8,485 nt of DNA from a virus: the UHGV virus genome UHGV-0302546. One strand, given 5' to 3'. The notes beneath the pieces are model-generated. The model searched no databases. It saw nothing but the letters and a program-made list of their open reading frames with translations, and was not told where the DNA came from. Position 1 is the first letter of the stretch, and the number at the start of each line of letters is the position of its first letter. The position numbers and the translations under genes are program-made. Below, one piece after another: positions 1,512 through 2,735 of the stretch.

Positions 1512-2735
1512 TCAAACTTTTTTGACCTGTAACAGAATAACCATATCCGTGCGGCTCTTCTCGTCAGATTTCTGACTCCAGCTTTTGGGCAGAAATGATA
1601 ATCCTGTGCTGGCCTGCGAATCCTTGTTTTCTGCCAGACCACCCAGCAACACAATATCGCCATCTTTCAGAGTCAGCGACGTATCCACCTCACGCTTGAG
1701 CAACGTTGGCGAATCATTCACGCCCGTATCTGTTTTGACAAAATTGCTTAACTGCTGATTGACGTTCAGGCTGATGCGTGACGACGTGATAACCGGCTTA
1801 ACTTTGAATATCACCCCTGAGTCACGATATGTAACCGACTGAACGGCTTTACCGTCCTCATAGGATACGCTGCCAAGAACCGGAACCTGCTCACCAACGG
1901 AAAACGTTGCTTCCTTGCCGGAATCCATGCGCAGCTGTGGCGCGGATACCACCTTAAACCGGTTATCTGTTCTGAACAGTTCATACATCGCATTCAGCGT
2001 ACCGGAGCTGAATGAAATGTAATTCCCCATTGATGAAGATGTCCCCATGCTGACACCAAAACGCCCTGATAACAGTTTTGCTGCCAGCGCCAGCCCTGAA
2101 CCTTCAGAACTCCCTGTCTGTACCTCGTAAATATACCCCGTCACCACAACCCCCTGAGCCGGGACATCAACCAGCGGTACCAGCTCCTTAAGGCGAACCA
2201 GCTCTGAACTTGTCCCCCTGAAAACCAGTGAATCCCCTTCACCCGATAAAAACGAGCCTGAAGATACACTGCCGGATAACGATCCCGAAGATGATCCGGA
2301 CGCACTTTCTGAAGACGCCTGCGATGAACGCCCTGTCGCTCCCGAAAGCACTGAGGCCAGATAAGACGGTGCACGATGAAGTGGCGTATATACCCATGAA
2401 ACCATTTTTTCCGGCGCAACCACGGGTTTAAACGAGCGATAATGATCCACACCATTACGAGTCTCAACAGAAATATTCAGTTGCCTGAGCCAGCGCACAT
2501 ACTCTTCACGCTGTTTTTTCTGATCGCCCGTCAGACTTAAGTCCAGCGTCACCGGACGGGTATCGCTGGCAAGTTCAGGCGGCAACGCATACTGACGCCT
2601 GAAAATATCTTCCTGAGCCAGCTGTATCGCTGCATTGAGCGGAATACGGTCAACAATAAATGCAGGAGAACCGGCGAAAGCCGTGCCAGAAATCCAGAAA
2701 AATGCTATAATTAATATCTCAGAAAATACTCTCAT
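1512..2735 (-). CDS. gIV: pIV-type secretin (phage export channel), 407 aa from ATG at 2735
   Basis: Signal peptide [22 protein letters not shown]-terminal secretin-domain signature ([24 protein letters not shown] ... [24 protein letters not shown]). Strong RBS AGGTGAGG before the ATG at 2735; the tracked start at 2750 is a TTG five codons upstream. Confidence 0.9.

Follow-up and report, generated by a model that had tools for sequence, protein, structure and literature searches.

A predicted disordered, Ser/Gly-rich loop within the N3 domain of a pIV-type secretin from an Escherichia coli filamentous prophage

The pIV-type secretin encoded by the viral genome UHGV-0302546 (8,485 nucleotides; the window, meaning the whole stretch of DNA that was analysed) contains a Ser/Gly-rich stretch that, in the AlphaFold2 (AF2) model of the protein, is an insertion between helix 1 and strand 2 of the N3 domain. 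The stretch is probably a disordered, weakly constrained, lumen-facing N3 variable loop of an E. coli filamentous prophage secretin, its orientation towards the lumen being assigned by analogy with other secretins. Such loops belong to a structural class described before, and the novelty is confined to a Ser/Gly-rich example from an E. coli inoviral prophage.

The secretin gene occupies positions 1512..2735 of the minus strand and encodes 407 amino acids plus a stop codon from an ATG start. The mechanically defined open reading frame, the sole long one over the site, reaches a TTG at 2750 (1512–2750, 412 aa), five codons upstream of this ATG. The ATG form, with the N-terminus MRVFSEIL..., was preferred because the homologues in a close E. 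coli prophage copy are annotated as 1224 nt. Residues are given below in the numbering of the ATG form unless the TTG form, which adds five to each position, is specified. The pIV-type secretin identity proposed in the initial annotation was upheld by sequence and structure searches. Pfam Secretin PF00263 matched aa 260–407 of the TTG form with 87.6 bits (cut-off 27.5; E=9e-25), and phmmer matched 20 solved secretins, the best by sequence being f1 pIV (7ofh, E=8e-15). The top Foldseek matches in the PDB were all secretins (PilQ, InvG, PulD, GspD and f1 pIV 7ofh), with 40 secretin chains at E<1e-7 and a target-normalised TM-score of 0.69 for 7ofh.

The window is an inovirus genome or prophage unit with its morphogenesis and replication genes on the minus strand, and the secretin gene stands, as expected of a pIV-like export secretin, beside the genes for the pI/Zot assembly ATPase, coat and replication. 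The Zot/pI-like gene (2912–4123, minus strand; Zot PF05707) lies immediately upstream of it, and the unit also holds a g3p-like gene (4485–5747, minus strand; Phage_Coat_A PF05357), a small minus-strand coat-like ORF assigned purely by reading the sequence, and a GPA-type replication gene (6821–8473, minus strand; Pfam PF05840, E=4e-49). The product of the last, Rep, is of the P2 gpA type and not an Ff pII-type initiator. Its mechanical ORF has 550 aa and the E. coli homologue is annotated as 2001 nt; the window may cut or re-start the Rep gene near the window end. The g3p-like protein carries a long (GGGSS/GGGNS)n linker (4944–5121) that is reminiscent of the glycine-rich linkers in Ff g3p and whose DNA, unlike that of the secretin loop, is a genuine tandem repeat (TRF periods 30/45/75, 82–90% matches). 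On the plus strand, the small ORFs 451–633 and 702–917 are paralogues (42% identity over 55 aa, E=5e-15) for which a Pfam search returned no match, and a third small ORF (914–1162, plus strand) lies beside the pair. All three are divergent from the morphogenesis genes and may be regulators or an immunity module.

The same gene order is kept in E. coli prophage copies. The tandemly duplicated prophage of E. coli AST205 (NZ_AP043614.1) is 97.7% identical over 84% of the element length; its two copies lie head to tail and adjoin a fimbrial operon. Matches to the element were found in 272 of 5,426 complete E. coli genomes. Megablast of the whole window against 50,697 phage records gave no match, the best phage secretin match was 43.6% identical, and a search of the literature turned up no specific description of such an E. 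coli phage. The element appears to be a common E. coli inovirus.

The 39-residue stretch corresponds to aa 131–169 and is encoded at 2229–2345 of the minus strand. The peptide first reported for it was translated exactly, and the end then given, 2348, takes in one extra Leu codon. Ser (18 residues) and Gly (8 residues) make up 26 of the 39 positions, compared with 18% of the rest of the protein. When the protein was shuffled 100,000 times, the richest run of 39 residues held 14.9 Ser+Gly on average and at most 24, always short of 26, and the stretch is thus confirmed as real and non-random. Tandem Repeats Finder (TRF), run on the window, reported nothing at 2229–2345, and five different Ser codons are mixed in the stretch; the low complexity therefore resides at the protein level and not in a DNA microsatellite. 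A simple microsatellite origin was rejected on the TRF result.

An overlapping gene at the loop was also considered. Nested ORFs of 52–108 aa in other frames overlap it on both strands (2141–2467). The other frames and the opposite strand are open over the loop for 24–113 codons, and they remain open in most relatives and are interrupted in some. Open alternative frames are expected of DNA with this TCN/GGN-rich composition. The overlapping gene was rejected as unsupported, some of the frames being interrupted and the differences among relatives being mostly synonymous in the secretin frame.

The domain layout was taken from an AF2 monomer model built on a 150-sequence alignment of relatives at 28–94% identity (mean pLDDT 88.1). 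The model and Foldseek agreed on an architecture of N0, N3 and double-barrel core, which is the element order expected of a secretin. A probable signal peptide (aa 1–21; 2673..2735, minus strand) was predicted as a hydrophobic helix (2–16) followed by an A-F-A motif, with the putative cleavage site placed from the sequence. The N0-like periplasmic domain (aa 26–101; 2433..2660, minus strand; pLDDT 86–98) was modelled as E27–32, H33–45, E48–50, H53–56, E61–65, H72–85, E88–93 and E96–101 (E, strand; H, helix), and the N-terminal part also matched the secretin N0/N1 crystal structures 6rwk and 4ec5 in Foldseek (E ~5e-4). The predicted coil of 10 residues between E96–101 and E112–116 (aa 102–111; 2403..2432, minus strand) is the real N0–N3 linker. 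The N3 domain (aa 112–189; 2169..2402, minus strand), which houses the Ser/Gly loop, was modelled as E112–116, H123–130, E161–164, E170–174 and H176–189, together one beta-alpha-beta-beta-alpha ring-building unit. The secretin core, comprising the double beta-barrel and gate region (aa 195–407; 1515..2153, minus strand), was delimited by the AF2 strands from E195 onward, Pfam and Foldseek. Early in the core lies a second Ser-rich spot, GTSSSMGN (~2031–2039, minus strand; aa 233–235, pLDDT<50), which corresponds roughly to the extracellular barrel lip of f1 pIV (199–234), unresolved in that structure.

The Ser/Gly-rich loop itself (aa 131–160; 2256..2345, minus strand) was predicted as coil between helix 1 and strand 2 of N3. 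It is placed inside the domain because strand 112–116 and helix 123–130 precede it and the beta-beta-alpha elements of the same domain follow. The stretch had initially been described as separating the N-terminal periplasmic domain from the core; the model instead puts both flanks in one N3 domain, and separately folding domains do not flank it. The last ten residues then counted as linker are, by the model and the alignments, the conserved beta2-turn-beta3 of N3. This tail (aa 161–169, FLSGEGDS..; 2229..2255, minus strand) was predicted to form strand 2, the turn and the start of strand 3; its G-D-x-L-V motif is conserved and D168 is nearly invariant in the 150-sequence alignment. HMMER aligned the tail with VLSVDGSNLL of f1 pIV, pairing aa 162 onward (TTG numbering) with f1 pIV 137 onward, that is, with N3 from beta2 on. 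The C-terminal end of the stretch fell against f1 pIV 137–147 (SKSSNVLSVDG), and the alignment extended over f1 pIV 137–155, SKSSNVLSVDGSNLLVVSAP. A MAFFT alignment that included f1 pIV misplaced the f1 N3 region, and the HMMER alignment to the 7ofh sequence and the AF2 model were relied on. The loop was predicted to be disordered in the monomer because its pLDDT was 49–68 (block means 68, 49 and 53), it had no secondary structure, and 85% of its residues are small or polar, only 7% being hydrophobic. The corrected domain assignment, by which the loop lies within N3 and is not a linker, has little significance alone.

Loop length was surveyed across the family. HMMER was run exhaustively against 1.84 billion cluster representatives and returned 462 proteins at E<=1e-30; from the best 150 of these, 127 near-full-length representatives, clustered at 50% identity, were taken. 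Among these 127 the median loop length was 31 aa and the maximum 68; 92% had loops of at least 20 residues and ~6% of 10 or fewer, and 1–68 residues were found at the loop site across the 150 aligned proteins. The loop described here, 27 aa on the survey definition, is slightly shorter than the median and typical. The initial annotation had held that a stretch present universally in pIV homologues would be unremarkable, and by that standard the long loop, near-universal in the family, is so; the Ser/Gly flavour is particular to the lineage. S, A, G, P and Q are over-represented in the family loops, whose median content of small or polar residues is 70%. The Ser+Gly fraction here was 0.74 against a median of 0.27, the top value among long loops, and similarly Ser-rich relatives are few (P0241, P0243, P0372 and P0250). 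Because this richness is retained in the E. coli clade and in its nearest relatives (P0241, P0243 and P0372), it could be due to a specific requirement and not just to tolerance. Among the long-loop members, about 57% retain G-x-F/L immediately after the helix, an aromatic anchor that is absent here, and in about half an S-A motif immediately precedes strand 2.

The short-loop exceptions are Ff pIV and a Pasteurellaceae-type clade. Members of this sister clade, at ~43–46% identity, have 2–9 residues at the loop site; some belong to uncultivated inoviruses from humans and lemurs, others to prophages of Pasteurellaceae, Klebsiella, Arsenophonus and Xenorhabdus. Their secretins share the N0-N3-core architecture, with a turn of 2–9 residues in place of the Ser/Gly loop, and their flanks align cleanly as S-F-V-Y-x-P-x-H-R-D-x-E-Y-L-A and G-D-K-L-V-Y-Y-G-T. 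The AF2 model of the short-loop protein P0121 (E109–113, H120–127, a 4-residue turn, E132–136, E139–144, H146–159; pLDDT 94–97) keeps the same order of elements, indicating that the loop is not required for the N3 fold. The closest phage records, the secretins of Inovirus D_HF5_61 and Dulem viruses 52/53, are 42–44% identical over 96–99% of the protein. The short-loop sister secretins P0121–P0240 showed 63–100% identity to the Inovirus D_HF5_61 query across Pasteurellaceae, Klebsiella, Arsenophonus and Xenorhabdus, which suggests that one inovirus lineage was transferred widely among hosts.

Variation among close relatives was concentrated in the loop. The best 120 proteins, 86–95% identical and almost exclusively from E. 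coli or Shigella, contained 20 distinct versions of the loop region, with 68 to 81 residues between fixed anchors. In 99 full-length sequences all internal indels fell at aa 137–165 (TTG numbering), inside the loop, and none elsewhere. Variable columns made up 46% of the loop and 15% of the rest of the protein. The earlier suggestion that the segment might be hypervariable was thus well founded, and the helix 1–strand 2 junction of N3 is the indel-tolerant site of this secretin lineage.

The genes of four relatives were codon-aligned with the window. The unit TCTTCGGTA (TCT-TCG-GTA, S-S-V) was present in 0, 1 or 2 copies, and TCG-TCA (S-S) once or twice; the loop also showed a deletion of 18 nt and an insertion of 3 nt. 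All the indels examined at the DNA level were in frame, and several were copy-number changes of short Ser-codon units. Synonymous differences were as frequent in the loop as elsewhere (10/39 vs 94/368 codons in one comparison), and amino-acid differences were ~1.5-fold commoner in the loop, on few pairwise comparisons (6/39 vs 37/368). Judged from the aligned DNA, the loop evolves in the secretin frame with an indel pattern that reads as small-scale replication slippage.

The probable reading of the stretch as a weakly constrained variable loop would have the following consequences. By analogy with solved secretins, the loops of a 15-mer would project into the periplasmic vestibule and create a soft "N3 constriction" below the gate. 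Rich in Ser and Gly and without the G-x-F aromatic anchor, they would most likely remain disordered. An extruding filament of roughly 6–7 nm would displace or compress them, and selection would act on flexibility and solubility and not on exact sequence or length.

A more specific role is unlikely, though it is the alternative that fared best. The loop might become ordered or relocate on contact with the filament tip or pI/pXI, brace the N-domain rings and help unlock the gate, or fifteen loops might act as a brush-like seal that limits periplasmic leakage. Such a role would accord with the InvG loop, which partly orders when the needle is bound and figures in a proposed mechanism of gate opening (PMC6155069), and with the leaky channels caused by N3 mutations in f1 pIV (PMC8563730). 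It would also accord with the prevalence of long loops among the family representatives and the retention of the G-x-F and S-A end motifs by about half of the long-loop relatives. However, the G-x-F anchor is missing here from a loop of mostly small or polar residues, a whole successful sister clade lives without the loop, and loop length changes freely among near-identical prophages. These properties make the loop a poor fit to a precise interaction surface.

Also speculative, and improbable, is the idea that the fifteen loops act together at the N3 constriction as an entropic brush, a soft, hydrogel-like collar. Such a collar would be a second, passive seal that wipes the filament and cuts periplasmic leakage, or the entry of bile salts or antibiotics, while the gate is open; the extreme Ser/Gly content would then be an adaptation of a chronically shedding gut E. 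coli prophage. If this were true, the collar would be the bacterial counterpart of the disordered nuclear-pore barrier.

It is very improbable that the loop is only neutral debris of slippage, Ser-codon repeats that grew harmlessly at a tolerant surface site. Several indels are indeed copy-number changes of 6- and 9-nt units, all indels cluster in the loop, and the N3 fold is independent of it. Against this, the DNA is not a clean repeat, as the TRF result and the mixture of five Ser codons indicate; 20–68 residues are kept by nearly all family members despite >50% divergence; and the excess of non-synonymous differences is modest. The persistence of the loop and the small size of this excess argue that the presence of a loop is to some degree constrained. 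This alternative differs from the reading as a weakly constrained variable loop in degree alone. Finally, an inter-domain linker tethering N0 to the secretin core, like the N0–N3 linker of f1 pIV, is scarcely credible: although disorder is predicted for this low-complexity stretch and a flexible linker of 19–36 residues joins N0 to N3 in f1 pIV (PMC8563730), N0 ends here at residue 101 and is followed by a linker of its own, N3 elements lie on both sides of the stretch in the model, and the flanks S-[FW]-V-Y-x-P...Y-L and G-D-x-L-V-[FY]-x-G-T are conserved in the family and contiguous in short-loop relatives.

With the weakly constrained N3 variable loop as the preferred reading, two uses follow. 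The N3 loop site is a natural place for tags or epitopes in phage secretins, where the fold would stay unbroken. The natural series of loop lengths, from 2 to 68 residues in similar inovirus secretins, is material for probing the part played by the N3 constriction in gating and leakiness.

Loops at this site are known from other secretins. In InvG of the Salmonella SPI-1 type III secretion system (T3SS), Hu et al. described an N3 "variable insertion" (residues 217–267) that is largely disordered, varies among secretins and is thought to add a periplasmic constriction in the closed channel; with the needle bound, it partly orders, threading between N3 and N1 (PMC6155069). The loop described here has the identical position, between N3 helix 1 and strand 2 (coil 131–160), is likewise tens of residues long, and shows the variability in length and sequence of the InvG insertion. 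It differs in that the InvG loop, of ~50 aa, is not Ser/Gly-rich, and in that InvG residues 217–227 and 252–267 order in the presence of the needle and brace the N1/N3 rings. A second insertion of InvG, a T3SS-specific beta-hairpin, is absent from the AF2 secondary structure here.

The N3 domain of Shigella MxiD was modelled without residues 231–258 (PMC7058355), and in PulD the loop 288–303 is unresolved and the N3 domain constricts the lumen below the central gate (PMC6882859). Barbat et al. 2023 (PMC10550240) contained nothing on the N3 loop. The secretin of the window resembles PulD/GspD in having a flexible N3 loop, PulD 288–303 presumably being the helix 1–strand 2 loop. Type II secretion secretins have additional N1, N2 and S domains that are lacking here.

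The pIV of f1/M13/fd (7OFH) is likewise a filamentous-phage export secretin, built of N0, N3 and a double beta-barrel with the same N3 fold. The aligned C-terminal part is only ~26% identical (tblastn), and the N0–N3 linker is long in f1 (19–36 aa) and short here (~10 aa). The helix 1–strand 2 loop of f1, which we take to be KSNTSKSSN, would have ~9 residues compared with ~30 here. Consistent with the HMMER alignment, this length bears out the initial impression that Ff pIV has no comparably long stretch. The N3 domain of f1 pIV spans residues 108–172; it has a disordered loop that points into the pore, and mutations in the domain make the channel leaky (PMC8563730). That disordered loop is presumably the helix 1–strand 2 loop, since f1 N3 has no other loop of any length.
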